Source of the DNA: Trichoplax sp. H2
Taxonomy: Eukaryota
Length of the DNA: 64,000 nucleotides
Assembly: GCA_003344405.1 (NCBI GenBank)
Contig: NOWV01000015.1
Coordinates: 620,001 to 684,000, forward strand
Direction of reading: 5' to 3'
Position numbers and translations under genes: made by a program. Shown one piece after another: positions 3,831 through 34,500 of this stretch (within the stretch, counting starts at the first letter, position 1; each line of letters starts with the position of its first letter). Below the pieces are notes generated by a model, which searched no databases, had not been told where the DNA came from, and saw nothing but the letters and a program-made list of their open reading frames with translations.

Positions 3831-4178
3831 TGAATTTACAATTTTGTATTATTGCTAGCAATCGATAGAAAAGATAAAGCATTGAAGATTTGACTGAAAA
3901 CTTGGTCTTTTGTATGAGTGTCAAGAATTGAATTTCCGTTGCTATAAAATTTTAATAATGTTACTGCAAACTTAATTTAATTATTCATTCCCCACAATCG
4001 AATTTCACATACCTTTATAGTGGGCATCAACTTGATGATATCCAACAAGATTTTAAGCTGTTTTAATGGTATCACGGAAAGATTGATTGCGATTACTTAA
4101 AAGTCTTAGGATAGAATTCATCCTTCTCCTTTTTATCTACTTTGATAAAATTTTAATCGATGTTAAAACAATTAAGTT

Positions 4179-7100
4179 ATGGATGAACTACAACGTAAGG
4201 CAATCATTGATCATTGGGATCGATTAGTAGAAGAATTACCTGGTCAGGATATGATTGATTATTTAGTTGCAGATCGAATCATCGACCATGAAGAAGCCAT
4301 TAATATCGATATCTTACCAAACGAAAAAGAGAGAAATATTGAATTAATACAACACCTTTTAGCTTCAAGATCAATTCATACATATCCGTTATTTGTTAAA
4401 GCATTAAAATCCATTAATGATGTATCATCAAAGTCGTTGCTTGAATTGATTGAAGATCGCCATCATCGGTTACAGCAGAAAAAAGAATTGGAATTAAGTA
4501 AAAGATCGATGGATCATTTAATTCAAGGTAAGAAGCAATTTTTTATTTAATTTTTTTCTCATTTTTACCAACACTCCTTACAAGACTGATCCAAGTGCTA
4601 GATGTTGACTTTGATTCATAGAATATATGATATTGATTGAATATAAATGGACGATAAAGTCGAAATTTATGAGACGAAGATTAAGAACAATGTACAGTAG
4701 CTAATTCGATAAACATGATAGGATAAAAAATAGTATTTGTTATCACTTTCCAGTCTATTCATTATCCTCACTCGTACTTTTATTCTTAAAACTGGATCTT
4801 CGAAGGTAATTACTTACTAAGAGAATTTTTGTTTGCGCTAATTTTTATTTTAATTGGGCTATATCATGGTGGTAAGAAGGTCAATGTTATGCTTTGGGGT
4901 CCTTGTGAGATGTATTGAATCATGTTGAACTGGTATCTGAAGGTTTTATTATCCTTGGACACCCTTTCAATTTACTTTAAATTACTCTATTTTTAAAAGA
5001 CAGCTTCTTTTCCTTTCTCCTACTACTCTATCTCACAGTACCATCTATAAAGGGTTCTTTGACTACCACTAACATTATTTCAGTGTATAAACGTTCTTTC
5101 CACCATAATTATAGAAATCAATAGTCACGTTATTAAGGAAAATTGTAAGAATAACATTTTACTTTTACAATCTTGCTTCCTTTTCTTGCAAGTATAGGTT
5201 GATATTTCCGATCTTTAATCTATTTAAATTAAATTTTTGACAAGTTCTATAGACTTGATGTGTGTGACGTAATGCTATAATAGAGGCTTTCAATCGATAC
5301 ATTTTTAGACATGTATATTTTAACTGTTTGGATATTACATCACTAATTATTCGATCTGACATTAACTTGAACTTATTTAAACTCTTTATAGGTACTGTGA
5401 TTCCGTTTAGTAATTTTCTAGCTAGTTTATTTGTGATAAAGTGTTACAAAAATAGTGTAAATTTCTGAAAAATTTTCACCATAATATATAATTTGGTTTG
5501 TATACCTAGGGTTATGTACTTGCAGCTTAATTATCTAACAGCCTATAACACTTAGAATATTGGCAATCTAACTATTCTAGCATAGTCTCCTTACGCTAAT
5601 CTTAAAGTATATTAAGGCAGCACTACATTTTTATAGGATCTACTGTAATCTGCTTCTGGTATAGATTAATTCATTTCGTTTTCATCTGGAACGCTTCTAA
5701 TTTATCAATACAAAGTATATATTACTAACTAAAAAGACAATCAAAAATTTCGTTATTCTTTCACCATTTCTGCAATCGTCAGTCAATCACAATTCTTGAT
5801 TTATAGTACAACAGTAATAGCGACAGAGTTGCGGATAAAAGGGCGGAAGGAATCTTTAACAGCAACCGCTTAAAAACTTTAATTTTTCAACGTGCACTCT
5901 CATGTAGTTTAATAGTTACAGATTGCGTGAGAAATTTTAATGTCACCCGGTAGTAAAAATACATTTCAGCATCGAGTAGGCTGTAATAGCACCATATAAT
6001 TTATTATTAAGTAAATTAAATTGTAGAGAGAACTACTGTACGTCCAGTAAGAAATTGGACGAACGAACCTAACTGCAATGTCAGTTCTAGTAAATATCAT
6101 GCTATTCAAATTCGGTAGTCTTGTACCGTCTTGATTTTATTCCCTAATCGTTTGATAGATTTATTGATTATCTTGGAGCAGTTCAAGATATAATATTTGC
6201 ATTGGGCTTTTTCTACACATTCTAACTACTATATTATTCCATAATCTTGGGCATGGAAGAGAAATTTCAAACAAAGTTAGACAATGGTAATAACATGTCT
6301 GCAGTCAGACATGAAAAAAAGTAAAAATCAATCGCTAGATTGAAAGGTGTCATGCGCTTATAATAATTATATCCTATGGTTCATTCTTGTCTTAATAGGA
6401 TAGAATTTAATTCTATATAACAGTATTATAAGACGATTCAAACTGAATCGCTGTGTTGATTGGCATTAATGAAGGCAATACGCCTTAACTCACTTACTCT
6501 TTTCATCATAGGATGACTTAAATTGAATGGGCATATTGACCGCCATTAATGCAAGCTACACATCTTAACTTACTCATATACTGTGTTATAATGAATTTAC
6601 TTTATACCTTACTATCCTGTTTTGCAGTACCTTCTTCGGATAAAACTGACCCAGGGGATGAATTGAACTCATTGAAATATTTACATTAGCTTATTCTCAC
6701 CTTTATACCCAGTCACACTGTTTTTTGTACCTTATTTTCGAAATAGCGGTGCTAAGCAATGAGATATTCGAACTCATTTTACTATTTGAAATTGATTTAT
6801 TATCACCTTCACATCCAGCAATCCTGTTTTTATAGCACCTTAATTCCGATAAATCTATGTAATACAGTAAGATAAACGCACTTCACCATTTGAAATTGGT
6901 TTAATAATTACTACCTTTATGTCTAGCTAGCTTATAGTTATAGTCACTTGTTTTATATAGCATTGGACTAACTAATGGTTAAACTCGCTTCTCTATTTGA
7001 AATTGGTTTACTATCACCTTCATATCCAACAATTCTATTTTAGAGCACCTTCATTTCGATAAAGCTGTGCCATGCAATGAGCTAAACTCACCTCATCATT

Positions 7101-10100
7101 TGAAATTAGTTTATTGTCACCTTTACATGCAGGTAGCCTGTGTTTACGTGTACAGCACCCTAGTTTATATAAAAATTGTGCTAAGCAATGAGTTGTTTGA
7201 GCTCTTTTTATTATTTGAAATTGGTTTATTATCACCTTTAGGTCTAGCTAGCCTACATTTTATGGTGTATTATTTTTACGTATATAAATTGTACTGAGCA
7301 ATGAGTCAAACATTTTTAGCTATTTAAAATCGGTTTATTGTCACCTTTACGTCTAGCTACTCTGTTTTTATAGCACTTTAATTTCGATAAAGCTGTGCTA
7401 AGCAACGAACTGAACTCGCTTTACTATTTAAAATTGGTTCATTATCACCTTTATGTCCAGCTAGCCTGTATTCATAGCGTTTTAATTTCGATAAAGTTGT
7501 ACTACGTAAGGAGGTAAACTTATTATAATATTTGAAACTGGTTATGATCACATTTAATTCTAGCTAGCCTATATTTATAGCATCTTATTTTCGATGAAAT
7601 CTTACTAAGCAATGAGCTAAACTCATTTATTATTGAAATTGGTTTTATTGTCTTCTATAACTCTCGACTTATTACACATTTATGCGATATTGCAAGTTCT
7701 ATTAATAATTATAAGCGTTGACTAATATTGCCAATTTATATCGTATTAATGTATTGTAGATAGATTAACTGATGGATACTTTGGGTCTATTTTATTAGCT
7801 CCTAGTCTAGAGAGTGACGATCTTCCTGAATTACCACCTCATCCAGTAGTTCGTGAGAAATTAGCAAAAGATTTAGTAAAAGCTTTGTTTAGTTTAAGAG
7901 ACAAGAATGGTTGGATTGTGATTCGTGGCTCAGAGGGTTCTGGCAAGACTGTTGTCGCTAATCTAGCCGTAAGAGATGAAAGAACCATTACAGATAACTT
8001 CCCAGCAGGGTTTATTTGGTTTAAAATAGGTAATTTTTCATTTTTTCATAGATATAGTGTATTAGTTCTCGTTTTATGTCAAATAGAGGTATTTATAGCT
8101 CATGGTCAATATTCATGCGTATCTAATTATTTTAAATCAAATAGATACTGTACTTGTAGAAATTCTGACATAAAGCCAAAGTTATTCGATTATCTTAATT
8201 TGCATCATTTCTCGATTAATTATTTCAAGCAGTTTGAGATTTGAAATATCAGCTTGTGCTGTCCATATATTTGTCTATGACTAAAGTATGTATAACCTTG
8301 GCGGAGTGTCCATAATCTAACTGATTGAGTCAAGGCTAACTTACAACTACTTCAAGTCTAAGAATTGATTAATATCTAGTGCATGCTTTGTTGATATACT
8401 ATTAATTAATTAATTATTTGGCATAATTTAATATTTAATCAGCTTGTGTCGTTGGCGTATTCGTCTACACTGAAGTTTATACGAGTTCTTGTGAAGTGCT
8501 TAGGACTTACGTGATTTGAGTTAGTCTATTACTGTAAGCCTACTGATTGATCTGGTGTATAATTTGTTCGTAAAACGATTATTTATTCCATCAGTTTATA
8601 CTATTGACGTGTATCAATGAAGTGTGTAGAAGCTCTTGTAAAGAATTTATGATTTAATTGATTGAGCTAATACATAACTACTGCAAACCAAAGGATTTAT
8701 CAATATGTAGCATATTACTATTCACAGCAATTAGATGTTTTTGAGATCAGTTGACAGAAATAAACATCATAAATATTTTATACAGATTGTCGGTATTATA
8801 ATCGTCAACAATATTCTGTGTTGCCAATATACAAGAGCCTTCTATTCCTTGACTATAGTAGCAGTAAGAAATGGATCTAAAGATTAAAACTTTTTCTTTC
8901 CAGGCTGTACAGATATTAATGAACTCTTAATCAAGGTACAAGAATTTTATTTGATACTCAATCATAATGAAAAACCTCCACCTAGTACTATTGAAACCGT
9001 AATTGAAAGTATACGACTATTAATTGGTAAGTAGACAGTATTGATTGATCGATAAGCTACATATCCTATTGCATGTTCGGAATTAAGCACGTTATACTAA
9101 TCTATTTTTTGCCATGTTTTAATTCTCTGACCCTAGCTGATCAATATTATGGCATGTTACTTATATTGGATGATGTGCGCGACGGAAAAATATTAGAATA
9201 CTTCGATTTGCCCTGTACGAAATTAGTAACAACAAGAGTATCTGCAATATCATTTCAAACGACTAACTATCGCATCAATTTGAGCACAGAGGTAATTTTT
9301 AAATCGACTAGAATGATAATGTAAAGTATTAGTATTGCCAAGATAACCTTAAAGATGCAAATAAAACGTCACTTTACTTTTAACTCGCTCATAAAAATTA
9401 CTTGTACGCATGAATTTCTGATCCCCAATATTCATCAAACGTATACACATGTACTCCAATATCTACAGGATGGATATACAAATTCTGAGGCCGAGAAAGC
9501 ATTTAGTGCTTGGTTTGAAAATGATTTGACCTCTATTACTAGTGATGCAAGCAGTATTACTGAAGAACTGAAATGTGCTCCTATGGCAATAGCATTAATT
9601 GGTGGCAACATCTTGCATGATGATATACAATTTCAAAATCAGTTTAAAATGAACGGAAGCTCTCTTGAAAATGGTTATGCAACGAAATCAGTAAAATCCG
9701 CTAAAGTCGAAAAAATAAAATTTGCGTTAGGCAAAGCATTCGATACCGTCGACGTTGAGTTAGCTAGTAAATTACGGCAATTGGTTACTTTTCAAAAATG
9801 TCCAAAGATTCCATTAAATCCATTAAATGTTTTATGGCAACTTAACGATGGACAAGTAGAAAATATTATGAATCAATTAGCTAAGCAAAGTTTAGTTTTA
9901 ATTACAAAAAAACGACGAGATAAGTAAGTAAAAATTCAATTAATTCAAAGGCTAATCCTATAATCAGCGATACCCGTATTCAGTTGGACTAGTTTGTTAT
10001 TTTACTTTTGGGTGTAGGAATAAAATGAAGAAATTTTCAATTTTCGACCATACAAATGAATGATTTAATATCCTTGATTAGTCTTTTGAGGTTCGAATTG

Positions 10101-13100
10101 TAACTGACTATCTTTAACCTTTTTATTTCTACTTTTAGTCAATTACCAATCTATGAATTACATGATATAGTCATGAACTATCTAGTCGAAAAATCAACAA
10201 ACTTAATGGAAATGCATCAGTCTCTGATTCGCCAGTATGAGGATAAATTCAATGGCGATTGGTTAGCTATCATGGACGATGAGTATATGCGCGATCATTT
10301 CATCTATCATCTACTACAAGCTAAAGAATATGATAAAGTCATGTCGATTTTAACCAATTTAGAATGTTTGGAAGTAAAGTTACGAGCTACATTAATATCT
10401 AGGGTATTGAACGACTTCCTTCAATGTCGTTCGATATTAAGCAAAGAGGTAAAGATCTGCTTCAGTTTTTTATTAGACTGCAGTATTCTATGTTTTGACC
10501 ACTATTCGTCTTGCTACGAGTACGCGTATATTACTTGTTCTGATAGTATAACATTTTCAAGAGTTATTGAACCGAACGATTTAGGCTTTAATGAAAGTTT
10601 AAATCTGAATCAGTTAAATAGTTATATTTAGGAACTTTATAAATTGGCATTTTATAATTTTATCACTATATGATATTCATACTGCTGATAGAAATGGTAT
10701 TCCATAGTACTTTACTGTAGATATTTATGAATACTGATCTTTCGCCTTATAACAGGAATTAAAGATTTAAAGTTAGATCCTATAAGTTAGATCCTATAAA
10801 AGTGATATTCTAGTAATTCAGATCTCTTATTCTGTGTAGAAAGTTTATAAGTCTAAACTTGTCATCATCCTGGACACATGGCTAATTATGTATAACAGTA
10901 AATTTAAAAACTATGATTGCGTACGATTATAGCTACTAAACTGCAGTTCTGTCATGAAATCCTTCTACGCTAACAAAGTTATAAATAGCAATTAGGTGTA
11001 CTTGCTCTATTAATTATAAAATGAAGTTGAAATAGTGGTTTAAATTCATGAATTTTAACCTTTTTTGCTTGTAATTATTTATATTGGTCTAGAACTGGGA
11101 AGCGATCAGTCAATATTACCAATTTGTTATTTGTAACGGTAACATCTACAATATTAATCCTCAGCAAAGTATTATTCAAATGGCCTTGAGTAAGCTTGGC
11201 TGGCCTGATATTTACGATAAAGCGGAAAAATTGGCAAAGAGATATTGCCAGGAATCACTATATTTTAAATGGAGGTAAGATGTTATCAAAACCGCCATTA
11301 GATAAACTGTTCGTCGTCAATTCTAACAGCTATAGCCTATTTCAAACCACCTGAGTTAACTTGTGGCAATAGCAAGATTAAAAATCAGCAGCAATCCATC
11401 ATCCTATTACTTTGATCATTTGTCGTAAATTGCTTATTAATTGATCCAAGCTGAGCTTTAAAGTTAATACTACAACTTTTTCTCTATTTTTTAATCGATA
11501 GCAACAATCATCAATACGATGTTACCGATCAATCCATTTCATCTACGGAAATCCATAACGATCGAATAACATGTTGCAGATTTTCACATGATGGCAGCAA
11601 AATTGTATCATGTTGTGATGGAGGCGAAATTAAGGTTTGATAGTGTCATATTCTCAATTTATTTATACAAATTTTAATCGATTCAGTGACAATTATCCTG
11701 CGTAGAACTTTAAATTTAACTAGAGTTCTTCCATCTCATAAGGTCTGGGATAGTTTATCCTCCGCTGTATTAATTTCCATTAACTGTGGCCACAGTGATC
11801 GAATAACCCACTGTTGCTTTTCACCTAATGATAAACTCATTGCCACATCATCGTGGGATCACTCTGTAAAGGTAAATTGTTTATAATACTATAATTATTT
11901 TAAATAAGCGAACTAATGTTTAAGATTTCGTAATGAATAATACTGATGCTGTGAGAGAAAATAAATTCACTTACCGGAATTATTTACTCTGATACATTCC
12001 TATCGTAGTCTATTATAACTAATTGCTATCAACAAGAATGTTGTTTTGATCATAATCATCAGAATGATCAGAGCACTATCATTAATCATTTTCTCCGATG
12101 GCCTTATCATGGCCTGCAACGTAATTTTGTATCTAGATCGTTTTAATGATCATAGCATTTGATCGATTTCCCTAATAGCTTTATTGTAAATTATTATGGC
12201 ATCATGTTATCTAGATCATCAAAATAGCATTTTATTCATGAATTCCTTCGATGGTCATTTAAACCTAGAATATAAACTTGTAAAACTATTTATTGTAGAT
12301 TTGGGATGTCTATACCGGGAAAATTGTATTTAAATATGAGAGCCATTTATTTGCTGTTAATTGGTGTGAATTTTCCATGGACGGCGAAAAAATAGTTTCC
12401 TGTTCCGCTGACAAATTAATTAAGGTTGATATAATTGAGTGTATCATTTTAGAGTTTGCTTATATATTATTTTTATCAAACGCAACATGATTTTGCGTAA
12501 AGATGAATGTAAACATAAGAAACCATTTGCCTATTTTCTGATATTTATCGGTACCCTTTATGATTTGGTTTAGATATGGGATAGCAGAACCGGTAAAGAT
12601 CTTGTCATTTGTCGTGGCCACAGCGGTGGAGTTTTACAATGCCGTTTTTCCAAAGATGACAGAAAAGTCGTTTCTTGTTCATCTGACGAATCTTTAAAGG
12701 TAGAATTGTACTATAATGCTGCTTGTTTTGTGTAAACTTATCGCTATGCTAAATCCTGTTGATAACATAGTGAGTTAACAGCGAAAGGATATACGGTTTA
12801 ATATTAACAGAAACACCATGTAATACTGTAGATTAGTTGACGGAATTTCATAGGGATAACTCCGATATACTCTCAGGCTTCCTAACATGGATGGCTAAAG
12901 TATCGTTCTGTGTTATGAACCCTTAGAAATGATGATACAAATAGTAGAATTTGAGAGTATTCAGCAATTCCATCATGATATTTTTAGATCTCATAACATT
13001 TGGCTTTAGCACGGTGTATTTAAATTATTAGAATGATAACTGTCTAATCGTCGCAGCAGTAGAAAAATAGTCCCTAAGAACATTAATCGCTCTCTTTGGT

Positions 13101-16100
13101 TTCTATTCTACCATAAGATGTGGGATACCAGCAATGGCAAACTAATTTTCTCATGTCGTTGCCCTCATCGGGTTTCCGCCTGCTCATTTTTCGATGATTG
13201 CAATAAATTAATGTGCATCTGTCGAAACACAGTATGCATGTGGAATGCTCATAATGGATCATCACTAGGCCAATTTTATTGCTCGGGAGAAATTACAGCG
13301 TCCGCCGTTAGCTTAGACAGTAAATTTTTTGCTCTGTGCGTTTACAATGTCTTCAAGAAGAAAGATATTTCTTTACAAGTAAGGAGTAACTTATGCACTA
13401 AACTATTGTAGCTACTTGCATTAAATCAGCTGTGGTAACCAATCATTTCGATTAGAACCTGTAGTAATTGGAATAAAACTACTAATATTTACCAAGAGTT
13501 GTACTTTCATCCGTTCTTTCTCCTAGGTATGGGATAATAAAAAGAAAAAATTAATATCTATCTACTACGGACACTCGAATAATATTTATAGTGTTCAATT
13601 TTCGCCAAATGATCAAACTATTGTTACTGCTTCCTATGATAAGACCATTAAGATATGGCACCGTAATAAGAAAAAATTAAATCGCGCCGTTCAAGTTAAG
13701 AATAATTTACCCAGTTTAGAGTTATACGAATGCAAATTTATCGAAAACTGCCTTGTAGTTTATGCGGTACATGACGAAAAAAATCGATTAAAGGTAGGTT
13801 ATATGGTCCGGAGTATTTTGCTTGATTCGTAGGGAGATAATTATACCTCTTACCAAGATATCACCGATTCTGTTAAAAGGAAGTTAACAACTTTTACTTT
13901 ACCATCATTGGATGAAATTTCTGTTATTCATTAATTGCTATACCTCAAGTACGGCCTGATCATTTCTATATAATTATCCACGTGTAGAAATTACAATTTT
14001 CAATAATTTATTGAGTACTCGATGTTTGCATTGATTAACTACCAGACCAGTAATTAAAACATTTTGAAATTGCAACAGTACAATAATATTTATTTATCAT
14101 TAACTTTTAATGTGTCGGCTTAAAAATGACAGCTAACCCTTAAGCAATCTTAAATTTAGTTTCCAATGCTTAAAATGATAGCGAATCTTCCTAAAATTAT
14201 AGTTTAAATAACATTTTCCACTTCCTTTTGAAAAGTCTAAATTAGAAATTACAATAATATATTCATCTTTTCTTGATATATCCAGTTTAGCTAACTATTA
14301 GCTATTCAATATTTTTGATATTAAAACTTTCAATTTGAATTTCCCATGACTTAATGAATCTTTTACTAATTTGTCCATTAATTGCTAGCAATATTTTATC
14401 GTCGCACTACTGCGTTAGTAAGACCTATTGTCATTGCTTTTGAAATCTATTCCACTATCCTGCTTTTAGATGTATGCTGGAACCGACAAAGAGTTTAAAT
14501 TAATCTCAAAGTATAGCACCTTTGGCCATAGAATTACCGCAATCTGTATATCAAATAACGGAAAGCAAGTTGCAATAGGTTTTAGTGAAGCTGGTGGAGT
14601 ACAGGTAAGAGGAGATGTGAACCATTTTTAACTAAGAATTTTATACTTATACAGGTAAAATTGCCTATCTGCAGTCCTTTACTTAGCAAATTCATAACGT
14701 CTATTATAGATAAATATCTTAGCATTTTATTACTCTCTAGTTATTATCCGCCAACGACATCAAGAATTGCCTATGGCATGTTAAAGGAAACTTGTGCGAG
14801 ATGACGTGTATTACGTTAATCAAATTTAGCAGCAATGATAACAATTTGCTTGTTAAAGATGGCAACCGGCAATTATTTGTAAGTTGTATCATTTATCTTA
14901 GTTCTATGGATTGAACAGATTAGTTAGAAAGTCAACTTAAAACATCAAATTAATTTTGAAATGGGTTAGGTCTTAAGCTCGACCGGAGCTGTACTCTTTA
15001 AGAGTGGTAAAAATCATGGCGATATCACCGGTTGTGCGATATTTCCAACTGGCCAAAGAGTTCTTGGTTGCTATGACGAAAGTTTTAAAGTACGTTATCC
15101 TGTCATTCTATTTATTTTCTTCTTTAATTTTGCTGGAAAATAAGATTTTATAAAATGCCTTTCCTTCTAAACTAATTCGTAATATTTAATTGTTCTTAAA
15201 TGAATTATTCTAGATTTGGCATTGCTATGACGTAAGCCAAGTTGTCACTGTTAGAGCGCATAACGATATTATTGCGCATTTCGATATCTCTTATGACGAA
15301 AATATGCTAGCAACTCTCTCCTTTGACAAGATAGTCAAGGTGAGTCGTCAAGTCTGCTAATATTCAAGCTAAATCATAAAACTGTAAAGTTTTTGCTAAA
15401 ATATTGCAATATATCTACAGCACATTATATAGAGGAGTTCCAAGTTCAATCAAAACGCATGCAAATTATAATACTTTCTGCTAATTAAAAGTTTGCCAGT
15501 ATAACTCCTATTGGACGATACTATATCTGCAAGATCAAGGATCAGAGCATAGAATTACATAGATTTTCACTGAAAGTATACAGAATTAACAAGTCTTATA
15601 TAAAATATAAAATACTTAAGCTAAATCATAGGATGTTAAAGTTCATATTTAAACATGAATACTGTACCGGTACCAAAGGATTCTATTATCGCACTCTGAA
15701 TCCACTGTATATAAGAGAGCTGAGTTAAAATGTTCATAAAAGCTTTTTAGCCTTTATTAAATAAAAATATATTAAAAACAATTATGCTATAACCTATCAC
15801 ATATAGAAACTCAGTGCTGAAATATATCTAACACATAGTACCTGCTTAATGCTGTACAGTAATTATATGATTGAAACTTATCATTTTACGGCATATTGCT
15901 CATAGATTTGGGATTGCACCACTGGTTCACAATTGGCTTCCTTAGATCACTACTCTAGCGTTAATACTTGCAAATTTTCAATCAACTGCCAATTTTTGGC
16001 CACTTGCTGTGTTGATGGTTCAGTTAAGGTAACGATGACCTATAAATAAGTACGTTAATGTTCATACGATATTATTATTTATCCTAATTTTGAGTATGCA

Positions 16101-16777
16101 GAAACTTTAAAGGTATAACTTTATTCCAATACTTAGATTAGCTGCCTATACTGTATTGTGTGATTTGTCATTTTATGAATGTAAAGTAAAAGTTGACTGA
16201 TTTTCATATCCTTTCTGTTTCGGATACAAATTAATAATACGAAAAGTAGAACTGTTATTAAAAATAATTCATATAGAGGAAATTTTAAGAGTTGAATGTT
16301 TTTAATGTTACGATGATAGCTTAACAGAACATTTAGCCATCAAATTGATGTAAGGTTGAAACTTTAAAAATTGAAAAGGTCTTTCTTCTCAATTAGATGT
16401 GGAATGTTCGGTCTGGAAGATTGCGATACCGATTTCACGGCCATACGACCCAAGTTTTAAATTGTTATTTCATGCAAGACGATAGAATTCTCTTAACTGT
16501 AGGTGATAGTTTAGCTTGGTGGCAAATTGAAGATGAAGAATTAATCCAACGCTTCCCATTATATGGTAATGCATCGATGGCTTATTACGCTGATGATATG
16601 AAATCATTAGCTACAACAGATGATAAAGGGTATTTTTATTTTCTATCTCAAATTGTACCTAAAAATGAAGCGCCACGACGGCTATCCTTCGATCGACGAT
16701 TGTCATTCGACCGTCGAATATCATTTGACAGACGAATATCGTTTGATAAAAAAAAGGAATCATGTATAATTTGTTAG
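4179..16777 (+). CDS. APAF1: Apaf-1-like apoptosome scaffold: CARD - NB-ARC - HD1/WHD/HD2 - WD40 propellers, ~1302 aa. Exons: 4179-4527, 7760-8029, 8904-9026, 9137-9291, 9469-9923, 10139-10448, 11093-11274, 11502-11634, 11743-11871, 12299-12424, 12574-12699, 13118-13378, 13527-13793, 14470-14604, 14741-14878, 14970-15089, 15214-15339, 15906-16028, 16397-16777
   Basis: N-terminal CARD (MDELQRKAIIDHWDRLVEEL...IDYLVADRII), Walker A GSEGSGKT, Walker B LLILDDV, sensor I KLVTTR, CAPMAIALIG (GxP region), LHD motif, many GH...WD repeats. All introns are GT-AG and phases join into one frame (3909 nt). Confidence 0.93.
6670..7655. repeat. Degenerate tandem array, ~9-10 copies of a ~105 bp unit, in Apaf-1 intron 1
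   Basis: Core tttgaaattggtttattatcaccttt...ctagc...tatagcacctt..tttcgataaa.ctgtgctaagcaatgag recurs at ~6786, 6889, 6997, 7099, 7214, 7322, 7427, 7531, 7634. Confidence 0.88.
8245..8705. repeat. Diverged intronic tandem repeat, ~3 copies of 150-190 bp
   Basis: atcag(c/t)tt.t...gtcta...aag(t)...tata...ttg...ag....tgattgag recurs at ~8248, ~8438 and ~8590. Confidence 0.5.
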
Positions 16778-17469
16778 ATTCTATATGTAAGACGTTAAGT
16801 GGCTGTCTTTTTTCGGATACTGTTCATATTTATAACTGTTACAACAGGTTTTATCCATGATAGTGATCAAATAAAAGCGGAAACATATTTAGGCTAGGTT
16901 AAAAGACTTTTATCGGTGTTATTAGAAACTTATTAATGTTAAGCACCGGTAACGTATAATCTATGTATATATTTTATATACTAATATATCCACAAAATTG
17001 ATTGCATTTGAGAATATAAGGCTGAAATATCAATTTATAGTATTCGCGGGAAAAAATTTGAGATGTGTTAAAGTATATAATAGTCAATAATACATAGAGT
17101 TGTATACATGGAATTTCATTAATGATATTCAAGAAATTGATATGGTATCAATGTGTAAAAGCACAATAGATGTGTGATAATACTAAATGATTATAGAGAT
17201 CGAGTGAAAGACTTCTAAAGATATTTAAAAATGTTTTTATCATGACTTTTAATTTTTTTAAAATCTTTCAAAAGAATGATACTCCTATATAACAGAAAAT
17301 TAATAGGATATTTAAAGTGTCGGCAATTATAAACTTCATTTTGTTACAATTTCACAGTAAGCACAAACAACTTCAAGATTTTATATATTAAATGCTATTT
17401 TGATACTGCATAAAAAATAAAAATCAATTTAAGAATAACTGTGCATTAATTATCAAAGACACTGAGTCA

Positions 17470-19610
17470 AACATTGCATATGGGATATTTTAAAATATCA
17501 TTCCATTTGCCCAGATCGTTCATGTAATATTATGATAGATGATTTTACCAACGTTACGAGGACCAATATAAATCCCTCGTATCAGATTATTATGGCATTG
17601 GCCTTGATTTAATGCTCTGTCATACGCATTAAAGTAAATCTTTTGTTCTAAAGCTGTAAGATCATAAAATAGAATATAAAACATATTACATTATATGAGA
17701 AAACACTTGCTACAATTTCAGGATTATAACGGTATAGCCATGCTGGTATCATTTCCTCAAAATAGTCTAACAACATTATACACAGCTCTTCTAGCCATCG
17801 ATCGAATCTGTTGCCGCCTCTGGGTTCTCTTTAAATTGTTCTTTGCCAAAGTAGTAAGAGCATGGTTTTACTCAAGCCTGAAAATCTAATGCTGAATGAT
17901 TTCTCATATGCTGAAAGAGCCTCATCATACATGCTTTGACTTTCATAGGCAAATCCTATGTTGTAATATAAATATCCGAGATCGGGATGATTTGTAACAA
18001 GGACTGATAAATTAATTCTAAGTGACTTGTCAAACATAGAATGAGCCTCATAATGCTTGATTTGTTTTCGTAGAAAACTCCTAGGTTGTGATATAAATCC
18101 GTAACATTGAGATGACCTTCACTGAAGACTGATAATCAAATATTAAGTGACTTGTCATATATAGAAAGAGCTTCAAATACTTTCTTTTCTTAATATTAGC
18201 ATCTCATATGCTTTCATATGACTGAGCAACATCGGAATGACTTTGACCAAGAACTGACAATCGGATATTAAGTAATTCATACATAGAAAGAGCCTCGTCA
18301 TACTAGCTTTGATTTTTATAGAAACTCCCATATTTTTATATGAATTTGCAACATCAGAATGATTTTGACTAAAGACTGATAATCGAATACTAAGTGATTT
18401 ATCACACAAAGAAAGGGCCTCATTGTACTGAGTTGATTCCTGTAGATAAATCCTATGTTTTCATACGAACCTGCAACATCGAAATGGTTTTGACCAGAGT
18501 GATAACTAATCGAACATTAAGTGATTTATCATACATAGAAAAAGCCTTGTTATACTTGCCTTAAATTTTATAGATAATTGCCGTGTTATTGTATGAATCT
18601 GTAACATCGGGATGATTTTGACTAAGAACTAGTAATCGAATATTAAATGATTTATCATACATAGAAAGAACCTTATCGTACTTGCCTTTGTCTCTGTAGA
18701 CAATTCTATGTTGGTATATGAATCTGCAGCATCAAAATGGTTTTGACCAAACACTGATAATTAATCGAATATTAAGTGATTTATCATACATAGAAAGAGC
18801 CTTGTCATACTTGCTTTGATAATGGAAGACAATTCCCATATTGCGATATAATTTGGCAACGTTGGGATGATTTTGACCAAAGACTAATAATCGAATATTA
18901 AGGGATTCATCATACGTAGAAAGAGCCGAGGCATACTTGCCCTGATTTTTATAGACAGATCCAATGTTATCATAAGAACATTCACATCGGAATGATTTTG
19001 ATCAAAGACTAATAATCGAATATTAAGTGACTTATCGTACATAGAAAGAGACTCGTCAAATTTGTTTTAATAATTAAAGATAATTCCCATATTGTTATAT
19101 AATTTAGTAACATCGGAATAGTTTTGACCAAGGGCTGATAATCGAATGTCAAGTGATTTATCATACATAGAAAGAGTTTCTTCATACTTACTATAGTACG
19201 TAAGAGCGCTCCATTTCATGATATGAATTAGCAATATGCAAATCATCGTTATCTAAACATTTTAGTTTTATTTCTAGTGATTTTTACTATCTTCTAATGC
19301 TCTATTCCAATCGTTTTGAGATATTTTAATCTGCCTCTGTCAGTATAAGCATTCAGTCTTTTTGACTTCATCTTACAGTTTATTAGCCGGGTGTCGCCCC
19401 TTCGCAAGCCATTCATTGGCTTTCAAGATTTCATATTGCAACCTGTAAGTATTATTAATTTCAAGAGAAATATCGCACCGAAGTCCATCAAAATCAGTAG
19501 AAGTATAGACATTGATTCAATTTCATCTATAGTTTGAGTAAAATAAGTCAACTTTCCCTAAATTGTATGCGGTCCGGTATTACTGACCCTGTTTGAATGA
19601 TGATAGCACA
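17470..19610 (-). pseudogene. Truncated pseudogene paralogue of the adjacent TPR-Roc-COR-DD gene (~11 42-aa TPR units plus start of Roc)
   Basis: 126-bp periodic TPR units; in-frame stops (TAA 18563-18561; TGA for TGG at 17759-17757); several frameshifts. The intron acceptor before Roc is kept (17654), followed by ALEQKIYFNAYDRALNQGQCHNNLIRGIYIGPRNVGK, then a +1 frameshift at ~17545. Homology is lost near 17470, so there is no COR or DD. Confidence 0.88.
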
Positions 19611-21202: not shown

Positions 21203-24200
21203 TTATTCACGCTGTAAGAGTTTCGTTCGCTTCTTCTCCAATATAATATCATTTCTGTTTATCATTTTTAAAGCAATCTGCAATTCATTAAGGCTCGCAT
21301 TTGGCTGTTTCGTTTTGTACCACAAATTAAGTAATTGCTTCGCTTGGTTATATACGTGATCGCGATTTTGTTCCTTGATAACCTCAACATCAATAGCTGG
21401 ATCTAGCACCGTTGCTAATTTTATCCAATCTAAACCAATAGAGCTTGCAATAGAATGAAAATAATTTCTAGGATCTGCTAAATATGAGTGTGTATATACA
21501 TCACAGTTAGTCTTTAAATTTTTTAATGGCGAATAAGCTATGATATAAATCCACAATAGTTTACTGTTAACTAGCTCAAACGTTTCAATCGTGATTGGAA
21601 TGATTTGTATCATTATTTACATAATCACAATATGAATAAAATAGACGATAGCTCGTATGCTCATTAGAGTATGTTTATTTAAATTACTTCACAGCTATTG
21701 ATTATATTTAGTATTCAAACTTCTTAAAAGAAACAGTATGGAAACTGGTTTCACCTTTATCATTCGCGTCTATCCATCGCTCTATGGGATTGTAAGGAAA
21801 TTTTAGATTAGTAATCGTAAGAAGTTTTATCGAAACGGAGCAGCAACGCTACATACTGAATTCACGTATACAGTATATAAATACTCTGTAAATTTACAGT
21901 CGTATTTATATATGAGTTTTTAATTTAAATAGATTATACAGGTTCCTTTTATTACTTGCTTTTTATGTTTTCTAATGTTATACCATTATTCATACTAGCA
22001 TACGTGAAAGATAGTGTAAAGCTATGGAGTTAACGTATTCTACTCTTGTGTTGCTCATATTCTCATATAGTAACATTTTACTTGCTTATTTTAGTTCTTG
22101 CTATGCAATTACTATTGATAAAATCATAGTTATCGTAACAGTAGTTTAAAGATTTTATATAAGGAAACCCGAGACGCAAAGATTATTTGCTGGTTACTGT
22201 TATTATCAAAAGATGTCGAAGTTACGCGAATCATCATGATTATCTATAGAAATAATGATACAGATAGATCTTAAATACTTACCCATCCATAACTTTTCGT
22301 CATAAACCATCCAATCGCCAAGAGATTGACTTGCAAATCGCATTCTACAATGTTGACACTGAATCCAATTTATATCTCCCGCCTTATATTTATCGACAAT
22401 ACTCGTTTGCTTGCAACATTCACTGCATTTAATGTAAAATCGACAACTAGCTCCTCGAAATCTTATCATTCTTTTATCCACTATCGACATTAATCTATTT
22501 TTAACAACATCTTGAGGCCGGTTATGATATATAGAATTCTTAACTTTATCTATAACTGGCTTGGCAATAATTGATCTATTTATTTTCTGAAAGCAATATT
22601 GTAATCCTATATAAGATTCCTCTTTCTTGACAATGAGATAATGATCATCATCTGCTAGATAATATTTAGCACATTGATAATATAGTTCTACATCAGTATT
22701 ATTCCATTGTTTTAAGCATGATGAAAGTAGACAGTAATAAATTCCATCTGGGATATAAGGAATATCTTGACTGTCGTATCCGATATAAAGCCAATCTGAT
22801 ACATGATATTTTGATAAATCAAATGGCTTAGCATCATCTCTCAATAAATATGGAACAAAATATTCATATTCTACTGCACTACATGTATTGCCTTCTTCAT
22901 GTCTAATGGCACATATAATATCATACGCCTCCATTAGATTCAATATTGACTTTTTACTATTTTCATCCAAATTAAATTTATCGATAGCATAATCGATGTA
23001 ATTTCTTGATAATTTTCCTGTTTCACTGGCTTTTTGGTATTCATATCTCACTTGTAGACTACCATCTAGATGATCTTTTAGTTGAATGATTGCACGAAAT
23101 ATATTTAATAACCAATCGACATTAGTTATAACAATTCCTGAATCGCCTACTTTATGGCAAAATATAACTTCTCCTAAATCATGTAAGTACATTAGCATAT
23201 CTCTTAATTCATCATCACTTTCGTACAATCCATACTCTTGAGCTAAGTATTTTATTTCTTGCACTGTCATGATATTATTCACTTGAGTAGTTCTTATTAG
23301 ATTAATAGTACGAGATATCGATTGATTGTTATGCTTATGTAGAGATGCGCTTAATATTGTAGCCATAATGTACCATCGAATAGGAACAGGATTACGAATA
23401 AATGGTAACGATTGTACAAACGTTTTAATAACGTAATGTAAATGAAGACAATATTGCTGACGTTGCTCCACTGTCGATGGTCTATTATCATCAGGGTCGC
23501 AATTAAAAATTATACCAGAAGAGTAGATATGACTCTTATAAGACGGTATAGAAGATATCAGCTCTCTAACAAATTGTTTAAATCGACGATGTCGTTCTTC
23601 TTCATGTTTAATGCAATCGCTATGGGAAGCTACTAGAATAATTATAGGTAATGAGTATTGTGCATGGTCATCGTTGACGTTAACGTCAATTTTACTTTGA
23701 TTACTGTGGCCTCCTATAATTGATGTTAACCATTCTTGCATAGCCTTTAAATATGTCATTTTAAGTACTTGTCCATCTCTTGTTAGCACATTAGCGTTAA
23801 TATCTTGATTAATGTTAAATGTGAGAATATATATACTATTAGCAGACATGAATGGATGATGTGTAACATGATAGATTGCGTGACCTCCGAAATCCCATAT
23901 TTTAATATATTGGTTATTATCACGATTATTTTTGTTTTGGTTTATGATTGATGAACAATAATGCTCATGTAAGCTAATTACAGGCTGAGATTGAGTTTGT
24001 ACCGTTTTTGACGATATAAGAGCTCCTACATCATCGATAATACCTATAGGAGAATGTGGTTTATCTTCGAATTGATTTTCCTCAGATAGATCATCCATGC
24101 TAATTTGTTGATCTATGATACTGGTATCCGTTGTTTGCTGACTGATATTTTGCTGATTCTCTGCTGTTACTTCTGCTAATTGTTCTATGACTGTTGTCAC

Positions 24201-25821
24201 TTTATTATGTAATATCTGATTGAAATCACAAATTTCCAAATTATGAATATTATAAGATTCAGTCTCTACCATTTTATGAGAGTCTTCAGCAACTCGTGTT
24301 GGTGATTGATTGCTAATTAACACTTGTTGAGTAAATAATTTGATAATAGATGATTTACCAACATTACGAGGACCAACAAACATCCCACGAATCAAACTAT
24401 TGCGGCATTGACCTTGATCTAATGCTTTGATATATGCATTGTAATATTTCTTTTGTTGTAAAGCTATAAAATAACAAAATAAAATACTATATTTAATGAA
24501 GAATTACTTAATAAAGTCATACCAACCATAACAATTCGATTAAAGATTTACCTTTGTCTTGAGCTTGTTGATTACTGTTGTCATGTGGGTTGTTATTGCT
24601 GATGTTATTATTTTCCGGTGGCGTAATCTTTATTATACCATTTCCCCAGAATAGCCTAACAAAGCCATCGAAAGCTCTTTTAGCTATTGATGTTGACGGC
24701 TGTAGGTTGGATTGCTGCCATCGTATAATAGCTATGGTATCTCTCATCTTTTTAACACTGGAATGATTTTCACCTAAGACTGATAGTTTTATGTTTAGTG
24801 ACTTCTCATACATAGAAAGAGCCTCACCATAATTGCGTTGATCAAAATAGACATTCCCCATATTGTTATAACATTCTGCAACATTGAGATGATTGTCACC
24901 AAGGACTGACAATCGAATTTTAAGCGATTTATTATACATTGAAAGGGCCTGTTCAAGCTTACCCTGATTCCTATATACAATGCCCATGTTGTTATAAGAT
25001 TGTGCCACATGGGGATGGTTGTGGTTAAGGGCTGACAATCGAATTTTAAGTGACTTTTCGTACATGGAAAGAGCCTCGTCATGCTTTCCTTGTTTCTCAT
25101 AGACGACTCCCATGTTGTTATATGACTTCGAAATATCAGGATGGTTTTGGCCATGAACTGATATTCGAATTTTAAGGGACTTGCTATACATAGAAAGGGC
25201 TTCATCATATCGGCTTTGCTTCTCAAAGGTAACTCCGATATTGTTATACGATTTGGCAATATGAGGATGATTATGTCCAAGGACTGATAACCGAATTTTT
25301 AGAGACTCGTCATACATATCAAGAGCCTTATCATATTGACCTTTAAAATCATAAATTCGTCCAATTTCATGATAAGAATTGGCAATACGTAAGTCTAGCT
25401 TGCCTAAGTATTTTAATTTCATCTCCAAAGATTTCTTACTATCTTCTAATGCTCCATTTAAATCACGCTGTGATGTCTTCAGCTGACCTTGTCGGTATAA
25501 AAATTCAGCCAGTCTGACTGGATCCTGCAGTTTATTAGCCAGATATTTTCCCTTAGCAATCAGCTCCCTGGCTTTAGTCCACTCGTATTGCAATGTATAA
25601 ATGTGACAAGTATTAAGATAAAGATCGCATAGGAATTGATCTATATCAGCGAAAGTATTGGGTATTGATTCAATTTCATTAATAGCTTGCATGTAATAAC
25701 TTTGTGCTTCTTTCAAATTGTAAGCTGTCAGGCATTTCTGACCTTGTGCACATAGAGATTGTATCTGATGAGGAATAGTACTCGCTCTATGACAAAATTG
25801 ATCGGCGGCCATATATTCCAA
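21203..25821 (-). CDS. Roco-family protein: TPR array - Roc GTPase - COR - CxxC..CxxC - Death domain, ~1250 aa. Exons: 25821-24552, 24463-22283, 21781-21755 (27-nt microexon), 21477-21203
   Basis: 42-aa KLC/NPHP3-type TPRs. Roc: YIKALDQG..IRGMFVGPRNVGKSS (G1), SPT (G2), IWDFGG..YHVTHHPFMS (G3), IILVASHSD (G4). COR: PVPIRW, LMYLHDLGEVIF, VITNVDWL, YFVPYLL, IPDGIYYCLL. Death domain: IASSIGLDWIKLATVL...QAKQLLNLW...LQIALKMINRNDII. All three introns are phase 1 GT-AG and the total is 3753 nt in frame. Confidence 0.9.
24765..25395 (-). repeat. Five tandem 126-bp (42-aa) TPR units within the Roco gene, preceded by more divergent TPRs
   Basis: Units of the form PHIAKSYNNIGVTFEKQSRYDEALSMYSKSLKIRISVHGQNH repeat five times. 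Confidence 0.92.
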
Positions 25822-26419
25822 TTTAGTAATAATTAACTAGCGAAAAAGTTGTAGAGGTTAGAGGCCTTGTAACGTCTGCACACATTGATTCCTAACATCA
25901 ATAGAACATTGAAAGAAATGAAATTATATCTAAACTATATATCTAAATGTTATTGAAATATTTATTTAATTCTAGATCCATCAATCTTTTGCATGCACAA
26001 ATAATCATGCTTCAATAAAATTACAAATACAAATAGTATAATATAAAGGTTGTTAGGTACAGCACGATGGAAAAATTCTTAAATAGAAAGATCCACTTGT
26101 GATTCGTATACACGTACAAATGCAATTTCAGTTACCCTTACAGATTAATGATTCTAGACTATTACCAAAGATAAAATACTGGCTAAGAATTACCTTTACT
26201 AGCAAATTGGAGTTCTTTTCAGTCAGAATAGTTATTTATACGAATCATTACAAACTGCACACTAGCGGTGATGTGAGAGAATAATCAGTACCAAATCAAA
26301 TATTTATTTTAATACTTATACAAATTAATGTAATTAAAGTACTACAACTGATAAAATGGAGGAAAAAAGAAATAGGATATGTAATATACTCAGTATTTAA
26401 TATAAATATTGACATTAGC

Positions 26420-31500: not shown

Positions 31501-34500
31501 TTCATTAGTAAGTGATATTTACTTGGATATGTAAAGTAGCCTAAGATAGAATAAATGTACTTATTAGGTACTTTATCGATATAACATTATAATGTAGCAT
31601 TAGCGAACTGTATCTTATTAATATGATGTAATAAATTGTACAATACATCAGCAAGTAGTAACCATGTTTAAATCAGCTCAAGATTAGGGTAACTAGACTA
31701 TAGTACCTTTTAATTCGGGATTAAGTGTCGAAATACTCGTATATTTTATTCGTTTAATTCTTTTGGATAATGTCGATTGCAATTTAGACATAGCTTAAAT
31801 AGATAAAGTTAACGCCATTAATAATGACAAGCATTATCGCAAAATAGCCATACAATCTTAATTACTAACCTTTAAGAGGTATTATTTCCGTTAAAATGAG
31901 TCTTTCCATAGTATGTAATTTACGACTTTTACCGCATTTTAGCCAAGATATACAGCTGGACTTATTTTTATCTGAATATCATAGCATAATGTCAATATTA
32001 TGCCATCTAAAATATCGCATTATCATCCACTTCGACTACTAACCCATACTTGAATTTTGAATAAAATCCTCTTGAACACATTCTTTACAAACAGTAAATC
32101 CACAATATTTACAGGTCCAATGAACATTAAATATAGAAGTTCTACAAACATCGCATAGTTCTCGAAATCCATCAACGGACGGCTTGATATAAATAGAGTC
32201 TAAAGGAATCGCAAGTTCATGTAATATTGTTATGGATGAGATCAAAATGTACATGATCGCCTAGTAAACATCTAATAATTTATTTACTCACTGCTGTATG
32301 CATAATAATCAAGAATTGAACACGCATACTTCTACCTTTATCCCCTTGCTTTATAGCCTGCAGTTCGTCCGCTAATATTGTTAAAAATATTTCACCAGTG
32401 CATTGTAAAATGTATCTGGAGATCAATTTTTCACATTTTTCCCTCTTTCCTGAAGATTGAATTGAAGAAAAACACTGAGATGGAATTTTATTACTTAAAA
32501 CGCGATCTAATTCATCCTGATTCGAAGTAGAGATTGATTACAGGATTACCATTTTTTCCCGGTAGCCATATATTACTAATAGTACTGTTTTTATCTAAGC
32601 AGAATTCACGAGCGTTCCATTTGCCTGCAAAGGATAGCCTAGAATAACAAAACGGATAAATGCAGCCAGAATTTAAAAAACATAGGTTAGGACGTACTGA
32701 GACTTGGTAAGATTTTAAATATTGCATCTCCTTCTTATTAGCTAGCTTAGCAGAAATTACTTACAATCGGAAATTGAGGAAGCGGCAGCAATTATCTTCT
32801 ATATCTGAATTATCGTCTTGGAAAGAACCACAATCTAGGCAGCGTGGCAAGTATTTAACCAATTGATTGCAACTACAGGGCTGCCATAAAATAAACGGTT
32901 ATAATATGGATAATTACGAATGTATATACAATCATTATCAAGCTAACATTAATCCAGAACTTTTTTAGTAATGAGATATACCTGTGGCGTTAACGAACCA
33001 TCTTTTGGTAGAGATTTTGGCATAGCTTTAAATGCAAATTTTTAACATCAACTATTATACTCCGCTTTTAATACGAATATCGATTGTTGAATTAGCGTAT
33101 AATCGATGCCAAGGAGATACTATGATTGTAAAAATGATAGTATAACTTACTTTTCCGTTTCTTTACAGAATCCGTAGATTTAACTCCATTATTAAAGTCT
33201 TGTTTCCCAGAGTGATTTGGAGGTATAGGTGATAATGCGCTCGTAGATACTTCCGCCCAGGATTCTGCTTGGATGGCTTTGGAAACATTTAAGCAAGATT
33301 TAGGTAAGGAATCTGCTTCAGGTTTCGACCAAGAATCCGTAACTGGCAAGGTCGTACGCATAGCGAGAGTTTCAGTAAGGGATTTAGGTGCTGCTTTTGC
33401 CTGATGCTTTGTAACTGGTAGAGCTTGAGGCCCTATCGGAAGCGACGTAAGTTGCTTTGAAGACGATGAGCTCCGAATTGATGTTAAATCTTGATTCCTA
33501 AAATTATCTGATTTTAAATTCATAATTTTTTTCTTCTTTTTTTTTGATTGATATTCAAGACAATTTAGCTCAAATTGAAATTTATCGATTTCTCTCGTTT
33601 CATGTGGCAAGTCTATCGGCGATTCTTGAGCATTATATGCGTAATCAGAAAGCGTAGCCTTAGTGTTCACGTTGATGGCGGATAGATCTTCTGCTTTAGC
33701 TGGATCGTTACCTGATTTTTCAACATCAGGTGGCGGAAAATTTTCATTGATATCTTCTAACGCTGCCGTTTTGCAGTCACCTGAAGAATTTCTTCTCGCT
33801 TCATCTGGTAAATTTTTCTGCGATTCTTGAGAATTATATGTATGAGCATGAAGCGTAGCCTTAGTGTTTACATTGGGGATCGGTAAATCTTCTGCATGAA
33901 CTGGATCATTATCTGATTTTTCAACATTAGCTGGTGAAAGATTGTCATTGGAATCTTTTGACGCCGCCATTTTAGAATCTTCTGAAGAATTCTTATTTTC
34001 CGGCGGTAGACTAGTCATTTGCACTATCTTTTCAGATTGGATTGGGTTTATATCCACGGCATCCGTATTTTTAGATGATTTTGTTTCACAATCAAACTTC
34101 CTTCTACGTTTTCTTCTTGGTTGTAATAATCTAAGAGCATCATTCCAATTACTGGGGGTAATAGGATCCAATTGATTCTTCTTGGTTAGCAAGAATGAGT
34201 GATCTTGATCATTGCATGAAACGCTATTGAGTAAATTATTCGTAGGTGATGATGATAATGTGGTAGTTGGCGTAGCCATAACTTTAGAAGTAGGGATCTC
34301 GAGCTCTAAGTGATTATTATTTGAATGCATGTCGTCATAATTACTGTTAGGGAAAATACCATTTTGTCGACTTTCAGATTGAGTAACTAAACACAATTTA
34401 ATCCAATATAGATTAATGTTGCATTAGTAAATTGATTCGTTCACTGATTTGAATCAACTCAAAATGTGGAGACAATACCAATTTAAAGATTTACGACGTG

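Follow-up and report, generated by a model that had tools for sequence, protein, structure and literature searches.

We analysed a 64,000-nucleotide stretch of the genome of Trichoplax sp. H2 (contig NOWV01000015.1, positions 620,001 to 684,000; hereafter the window), in which a gene encoding an Apaf-1-type protein is found. The last exon of this gene carries a real, expressed and selectively maintained C-terminal extension of 42 residues, made of a linker, four tandem RR[LI]SFD units, a short basic patch and a terminal CaaX box, CIIC. It is plausible, if far from assured, that this tail acts as a regulated membrane anchor of the protein.

Position and composition of the tail

The last exon belongs to a stop-to-stop frame of the plus strand (16397..16777, 126 residues) that ends in ...YFYFLSQIVPKNEAPRRLSFDRRLSFDRRISFDRRISFDKKKESCIIC and TAG. 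The C-terminus of this frame is read as ...QIVPKNEAPRRLSFDRRLSFDRRISFDRRISFDKKKESCIIC and a stop; the protein end encoded by the exon is PRRLSFDRRLSFDRRISFDRRISFDKKKESCIIC, followed by the same stop. The first Arg codon of the repeat is at 16676, CIIC is encoded by 16763-16774 and TAG occupies 16775-16777. The original prediction, made from the letters of the window, had quoted the peptide correctly and started it at 16676, but the Pro that it included (16673-16675) lies three bases before that position.

In a search of all sequences of the PDB, residues 18-84 of the last exon (exon 19 of the model described below) aligned with mouse Apaf-1 (3sfz, residues 1179-1246 of 1249; 3shf, 1186-1253 of 1256) and with human Apaf-1 (5juy, 1177-1245 of 1248), with whole-sequence E-values to mammalian Apaf-1 structures from 1.6e-10 to 7.1e-10. 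Since this alignment places the last WD40 blade at the very end of the mammalian proteins, the 42 residues from Gln85 onwards represent an added tail, consisting of a 9-residue linker, four repeats of six residues, KKKES and CIIC. It had been stated previously that vertebrate Apaf-1 has no such tail and, in agreement, the mouse and human chains stop 3 residues past the aligned blade, whereas the Trichoplax protein adds 42. Otherwise the mammalian structures (3SFZ and 3SHF from mouse, 5JUY, 3JBT and 3J2T from human) have the same domain order and a collinear last blade. The assignment of the gene as Apaf-1-like is therefore supported by this collinearity, together with the predicted CARD, NB-ARC and helical domains.

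The four 18-nucleotide units, in order CGACGGCTATCCTTCGAT, CGACGATTGTCATTCGAC, CGTCGAATATCATTTGAC and AGACGAATATCGTTTGAT, match to the letter those quoted before; Tandem Repeats Finder reports the array at 16683-16740 (period 18, 3.2 copies, 77% matches, score 67). The 34 residues from the first unit to the end include 8 Arg, 3 Lys, 4 Asp, 1 Glu and 5 Ser, with a net charge of +6. The three Lys stand at -5 to -3 from the CaaX Cys, forming a basic cluster that adjoins the box. Ser122 directly precedes Cys123 (exon-19 numbering), with Lys at -2 to -4 of this Ser.

Transcription of the last exon

Contigs from four public runs (X1, X5, X7 and X9) were compared with positions 4000-17500 of the window. 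X1 spans the introns and is thus DNA-like, while X5, X7 (library on record as RNA) and X9, each from a different study, lack 14 introns between 9291 and 16397, all with GT..AG borders; X9 also skips 9923>10139. The final intron (16028>16397, 368 nt, GT..AG) is spliced in X5, X7 and X9, and the junction between exons 18 and 19 rebuilds in frame a WD40-type sequence, ...SVK/MWN.... From 16395 the contigs of these three runs continue unbroken to 17232, 17369 and 17334, respectively, crossing tail and stop, and they differ from the reference at 3-5 letters over 16367-17369. The last exon and its stop, for which the original prediction had called for a check in RNA, are therefore present in spliced transcripts. 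Hexamers resembling poly(A) signals occur at 16870, 17387 and 17416; the contigs reveal neither strand nor transcript ends nor rare isoforms, and a convergent gene begins near 17520.

Conservation of the repeat peptide

Any two of the four units show 4-6 differences in their 18 bases and 0 or 1 in their 6 residues, the latter always Leu/Ile. Eight columns are variable, which requires at least 10 changes, and the Leu/Ile change is the only one that alters the peptide. Of the 54 single-base changes that the consensus unit can undergo, only 15 are synonymous. To this we compared a null model, admittedly crude, with a star tree, the majority consensus as ancestor and 3 random substitutions in each unit, units being independent. 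As few residue changes as observed were obtained in 14 of 300,000 trials with uniform substitution, and in 22 of 300,000 with a transition to transversion ratio of 2. So few residue changes are thus rare under random substitution, and the repeat peptide is under purifying selection; selection has kept it ever since the units were duplicated, and the direction of this result is clear despite the crudeness of the model. The earlier observation that the units diverge at synonymous sites while the peptide is kept is therefore statistically real.

The motifs are also rare elsewhere. Six-frame translation of the window yields 6 matches to [RK][RK][LIV]SF, and the tail accounts for 4 of these; the protein has four [RK][RK]x[ST] sites in the tail and 0 in its other 1,255 residues. 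A CaaX-like tetrapeptide combined with a dibasic pair at most 6 residues upstream and a last residue of the farnesyltransferase (FTase) type precedes 1 of the 9,521 six-frame stops, and this one is the tail.

Searches for relatives carrying the tail

Relatives of the tailed protein were searched for in several collections. Word-indexed searches returned no significant match: with the last exon against longer proteins, none of 791 candidates reached E<=1e-3; with the exon encoding the NB-ARC and winged-helix part, also against longer proteins, none of 566 was significant; with the last exon against proteins of similar length, none of 86 reached E<=0.01. These three results are weak evidence of absence, and the protein collection searched seems not to include this protein or its relatives. 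Against 1.84 billion representative sequences the last exon gave 9,204 matches at E<=1e-3, the best 150 of which are generic multi-repeat WD40 proteins, ranked by the summed scores of their repeats. Among these best 150 the RRxSF array occurs in 0, a single RRxSF in 1 and a Cxxx end in 5; the query was dominated by WD40 and the tail alone was not searched. The ESM Atlas gave no usable match for exon-19 residues 85-126.

A scan of metagenomes with the last 85 residues returned 169 pattern matches and, among these, two candidate relatives (L001 and L002), both of which were rejected. In L001 (FDRRISFDRRISF) the frame holds a stop and the contig is G+C-rich and of bacterial type; in L002 (RISFDQRISFDRRISFD) the frame is bounded by stops and antisense to an open reading frame of 310 residues. 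In both cases the match consists of (R)ISFD(R/Q)RISFD (L002, 3001-3066; L001, 1400-1466), in stop-bounded or stop-broken frames of unrelated contigs. The long open reading frame opposite the L002 frame contains a short tandem repeat. Peptides resembling RRISFD can therefore arise antisense to short tandem repeats, and pattern matches of this kind need a check of the frame.

As for the literature, no description of a prenylated Apaf-1 was found among papers on Apaf-1 with CaaX or with Trichoplax, or on prenylation in Trichoplax, surveyed largely by title, and the tail is not mentioned in the passages on placozoan Apaf-1 that were examined.

Comparison with motifs of known proteins

CIIC is the C-terminal motif of yeast Ras1, which is reported to be farnesylated by Ram1/Ram2 (PMC6517510); the tetrapeptide is identical in the two otherwise unrelated proteins, and its identification as a CaaX sequence by the original prediction is confirmed as a sequence match. 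According to the authors of PrePS, the Cys of FTase substrates must be preceded by a flexible stretch of about 11 residues, most of them hydrophilic (PMC1175975), and in the tail residues -11 to -1 are RRISFDKKKES, 9 of the 11 being polar or charged. Homologues of Rho, Rac and Cdc42 in early-branching animals, including Trichoplax, carry CaaX and polybasic sites (PMC7600811), so the prenyl-processing machinery should be present in this organism.

For the repeat units, the Aurora consensus is given as [RK]-[RK]-x-[TS]-hydrophobic (PMC4607871) and RRxS as that of PKA (PMC8361095). The units match both, as proposed previously, again at the level of sequence. The docking motif proposed for the phosphatase PP1 is matched in sequence by half of the array: the RVxF pattern is [RK]-x(0,1)-[VI]-{P}-[FW], which fits units 3 and 4 (RRISF), while in units 1 and 2 (RRLSF) a Leu replaces the Val or Ile. 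The RRVSF motif of KNL1, which is also an Aurora B site, recruits PP1 when unphosphorylated (PMC4607871). Units 3 and 4 share this pattern, in that the putative phospho-acceptor is likewise part of the docking motif. The tail differs from KNL1 in having four tandem copies, two of them with Leu, and in their C-terminal position next to a lipid box; by sequence these are candidate motifs.

The closest parallels for the tail as a whole are the hypervariable region of K-Ras4B and the synthetic construct FES-PKA, both of which end in a CaaX box and have basic residues with phospho-acceptor serines among them. FES-PKA combines tandem PKA sites, comparable with the four RRxSF units, with basic residues and a CaaX box; in HeLa cells it shifts reversibly between plasma membrane and endomembranes upon activation or inhibition of PKA, and its membrane localisation depends on farnesylation (PMC8361095). 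Differently from these systems, the Trichoplax module is attached to a STAND ATPase of 1,250 residues instead of a small GTPase or a reporter, and is known here from sequence. It also has four sites where FES-PKA has two, and each of its units includes an Asp and a Phe. As no Cys is present upstream of the CaaX box in the tail, a palmitoyl group is unlikely as second signal, and the basic residues would probably serve instead.

Interpretation of the tail

On these grounds we infer lipidation, membrane binding, phosphorylation, PP1 binding and an effect on apoptosome assembly from the motifs, and tentatively favour the regulated anchor. FTase would modify Cys123 of CIIC, and the lipid thus added would hold the WD40 end on an acidic leaflet together with the KKK patch, the eight Arg and the Leu, Ile and Phe side chains. 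A basophilic kinase (PKA, another AGC kinase or one of Aurora type) would then phosphorylate the Ser of the four RRxSF units and perhaps also the Ser beside the prenylated Cys; since the net charge of +6 would be reversed by five phosphates, the affinity for the membrane would be weakened or redirected, as in a farnesyl-electrostatic switch. In its most complete form the hypothesis describes a farnesylated Apaf-1 scaffold kept at the membrane, in which a kinase switch of four sites, perhaps with 14-3-3 or PP1 as reader, governs whether the protein stays there; as a whole this picture is rather doubtful.

Several observations weigh against a regulated anchor. A CaaX-like tetrapeptide precedes 15 of the 9,521 six-frame stops of the window (about 0.16%), and given this chance rate the box alone is weaker evidence. 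Each unit contains an Asp, which reduces the charge of the array to +1 per unit, less than in classical polybasic regions. No orthologue or paralogue was retrieved in the protein, 1.84-billion and metagenome searches. Finally, AlphaFold2 run on the last exon as a single sequence gave a mean predicted local distance difference test score (pLDDT) of 34.3, which is silent on disorder of the tail.

The same data bear on the alternatives. The chance rate of CaaX-like ends would fit a neutral or nearly neutral, lineage-specific tail, which would have originated in a 3'-terminal 18-nt minisatellite of one of the many paralogues and would end by coincidence in such a tetrapeptide. So would the lack of a counterpart in mammalian Apaf-1 and among the best 150 of the 9,204 representatives. 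Moreover about twelve Apaf-1 paralogues are reported in this organism (PMC6321704), which implies relaxed constraint on each of them. However, synonymous divergence with a kept peptide (14-22 of 300,000 null trials) is unlike neutral decay, expression of the exon is seen in RNA runs from three studies, and an exposed C-terminus of 34 residues combines four sites of kinase type with a basic patch and a proven FTase box. We consider a neutral origin unlikely. That the tail is an artefact of the gene model, the true transcript stopping before it or splicing around it, is extremely improbable: X5, X7 and X9 join 16028 to 16397 and run unbroken for 838-975 nt through tail and stop, the junction restores the WD40 frame, and the 4 further joints equal in number the 4 upstream introns that the contig pieces appear to imply. 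Very improbable is also a tail made of links cleavable by caspases, in which an activated caspase would cut the protein off its anchor and the Ser of the kinase site, at P3, would modulate the cut. Apaf-1 proteins do activate CARD caspases, and in each of the units [LI]SFD is succeeded by R or K, offering an aliphatic P4, which initiator caspases favour, and an Asp at P1; phosphorylation at P3 was reported by Dix et al. (2012) to promote cleavage by caspase-8. But Arg or Lys at P1' is poorly tolerated, and P3 is Ser instead of Glu.

Two other explanations concern possible readers of the repeat units. The RRxpS sites, perhaps with a hybrid site of phospho-Ser and farnesyl-Cys (KKKES-C), could bind a 14-3-3 dimer; the lipid would be hidden, the protein kept off membranes and inactive, and survival kinases would thus silence this Apaf-1. 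This would resemble Rnd3, which binds 14-3-3 through farnesyl-Cys241, phospho-Ser240 and further upstream phosphoserines, and is moved by it from plasma membrane to cytosol (PMC3690454). The tail likewise has a Ser directly before the CaaX Cys and upstream phosphosites, in its case as a sequence match only. In the case of GBP1, which is prenylated and induces death, phosphorylation by PIM1 together with 14-3-3 sigma prevents membrane association (PMC7615196); both precedents belong to families different from Apaf-1. Mammalian Apaf-1 is itself under such control, being phosphorylated by Rsk at Ser268 and then inhibited by 14-3-3 epsilon, but that site is in the NOD and not at the C-terminus (PMC5840378). 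The Glu at -1 of Ser122 is atypical for basophilic sites. The units also lack the Pro found at +2 of classical 14-3-3 motifs, and we regard capture by 14-3-3 as distinctly unlikely. It still needs prenylation and phosphorylation, and therefore would extend the anchor explanation without replacing it. In the other case the array would be a multivalent RVxF platform for PP1, with phosphorylation of the Ser that each motif contains acting as the gate, so that anchored Apaf-1 would recruit PP1 to the membrane or PP1 would keep Apaf-1 dephosphorylated. The fit of units 3 and 4, the KNL1 precedent (PMC4607871) and the selection acting on the peptide of all four units argue for it. RVxF-like strings are common and mostly non-functional, however, and four copies six residues apart cannot all carry PP1 simultaneously. 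The Leu of units 1 and 2 is accepted only by looser versions of the motif, and the platform appears quite improbable.

Returning to the regulated anchor, what would be new is the combination of a known Apaf-1 scaffold with a known targeting module, which is not described in the literature that we found. Mammalian Apaf-1 is cytosolic, and the vertebrate protein is treated as a soluble cytosolic sensor, while the nematode homologue is held by a partner protein. CED-4 of C. elegans has no WD40 repeats and is held through a protein partner, CED-9, which is on mitochondria; the tether of the tailed Apaf-1 would instead be a covalent lipid on the WD40 end. The likeness is that CED-4, too, is an Apaf-1 homologue kept in place, being held by CED-9 until a death signal (PMC7527217). 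If the anchor is real, an assembled wheel would have one lipid anchor at the tip of each spoke and could lie flat on the membrane, giving a membrane-resident apoptosome nearer to the tethering of CED-4, to membrane-bound NLRs and to resistosomes than to the soluble vertebrate apoptosome, and providing a natural parallel to the switch engineered in FES-PKA. A non-bilaterian would then have brought a STAND death platform under membrane control through a simple add-on of 42 residues, which bears on where the ancestral animal apoptosome sat and on how survival signalling reached it.

According to Kamm et al. (PMC6321704), Trichoplax sp. H2 has about twelve Apaf-1 homologues, partly clustered. The tailed gene is probably one of these paralogues and not 'the' apoptosome scaffold, and the tail may mark the specialisation of a paralogue. 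One member of the expanded family would in this case have its own location and regulation, which bears on why placozoans keep many copies of Apaf-1 (PMC6321704). If the tail is neutral, the finding shrinks to a curiosity of one paralogue.

Gene model and domains

Joints in the RNA contigs, together with a contig bridging exons 1-4, gave a model of 19 exons on the plus strand (3,870 nt, 1,289 residues, with a single, terminal stop), in which the order along the gene is CARD, NB-ARC, APAF1_C helical domain and WD40 (Table 1). Pfam was run exon by exon and scores were compared with the cut-off of each family. The first NB-ARC exon scores 25.4 bits for PF00931 (cut-off 23.5), and its P-loop GSEGSGKT at 7927 is the only G..G.GK[ST] in the window. 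The winged-helix family APAF-1-like_WHD (PF21296) reaches 23.1 bits on exon 5 taken singly, under the cut-off of 27, while WD40 (PF00400) scores 48.8 bits on 13527-13680 (cut-off 27). Where exons 2 and 3 begin is ambiguous: the RNA contig has 355 letters between 4525 and 9136, and four GT..AG solutions fit both this length and an open frame, one alternative to the preferred exons being 7760-8029 with 8943-9026. The window is A+T-rich, with a G+C content of 0.30-0.37 in 2-kb bins, and introns are short.

Table 1. Exons, domains and tail elements of the Apaf-1-type gene (positions in the window)
Feature	Coordinates	Strand	Remarks
Exon 1: start codon and CARD	4179..4527	+	PF00619, E 9.9e-06, 25.9 bits (cut-off 23.9), on 4179-4520
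Exon 1 boundary			RNA contigs over 4000-4525, then jump downstream; donor GT at 4528
Exons 2-4: NB-ARC	7799..9291	+	preferred 7799-8029, 8904-9026, 9137-9291
Exon 5: NB-ARC end and winged-helix domain	9469..9923	+	joint 9291>9469 in 3 RNA runs
Exon 6: APAF-1 helical domain (HD2)	10139..10448	+	PF17908 APAF1_C, E 1.3e-11, 45 bits (cut-off 22.8)
Exons 7-18: WD40 repeats	11093..16028	+	joints in contigs of X5, X7, X9; introns GT..AG
Exons 7-12	11093-11274, 11502-11634, 11743-11871, 12299-12424, 12574-12699, 13118-13378		
Exons 13-18	13527-13793, 14470-14604, 14741-14878, 14970-15089, 15214-15339, 15906-16028		
Exon 19 (last): final WD40 blade, tail, stop	16397..16777	+	joint 16028>16397
Last WD40 blade	16448..16648	+	extreme C-terminus of mammalian Apaf-1 by alignment
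Linker QIVPKNEAP	16649..16675	+	translation; past the aligned Apaf-1 end
Four tandem 18-nt units: RRLSFD, RRLSFD, RRISFD, RRISFD	16676..16747	+	each fits [RK][RK]x[ST]-hydrophobic
KKKES basic patch, Ser directly before the CaaX Cys	16748..16762	+	translation
CaaX box CIIC and TAG stop	16763..16777	+	Cys fourth from the end, then two aliphatic residues
3' untranslated region	16778..17369	+	at least 455 nt; RNA contigs reach 17232-17369

The intron between exons 5 and 6 (9924-10138, plus strand) is spliced in the X9 contig and kept in those of X5 (9879-10168) and X7 (9467-10168). When it is retained, the frame of exon 5 meets a stop at 9925-9927. Retention reflects either unspliced precursor or a regulated event that truncates the protein after the winged helix.

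X1 has an insertion of 196 letters at 6499/6500, inside intron 1; it also joins 8419 to 7059 in a rearrangement and has several loose ends at 7077/7078, where short repeated elements resembling open reading frames occur. Intron 1 seems to contain a polymorphic repeat or a mobile element.

Neighbouring genes

A large gene on the minus strand (21203-25836), in three long open pieces, encodes TPR_12 (E 6.7e-101), Roc (E 5.3e-13), COR-A (E 3.7e-11) and a C-terminal Death domain (E 3e-11). Thus the Apaf-1 gene has as its neighbour a further signalling ATPase/GTPase of the death-fold type. Between the two, just past the 3' untranslated region of the Apaf-1 gene and convergent to it, the region 17520-19250 (minus strand) contains TPR repeats over all three frames, with TPR_12 at E 5.3e-10 on 17831-18115, and a P-loop-like piece, GPRNVGK, at about 17520-17690, which resembles the Roc gene; the region may be a decayed or intron-rich paralogue of that gene.

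Farther along the window we found a 443-residue open frame rich in Ser, Lys and Asn (33092-34423, minus strand), with an internal duplication and no Pfam match, an exon of an M17 leucyl-aminopeptidase (44673-45026, minus strand, E 2.5e-14) and an exon with a beta-N-acetylglucosaminidase (NAGidase) domain (56201-56812, plus strand, E 2.5e-16).

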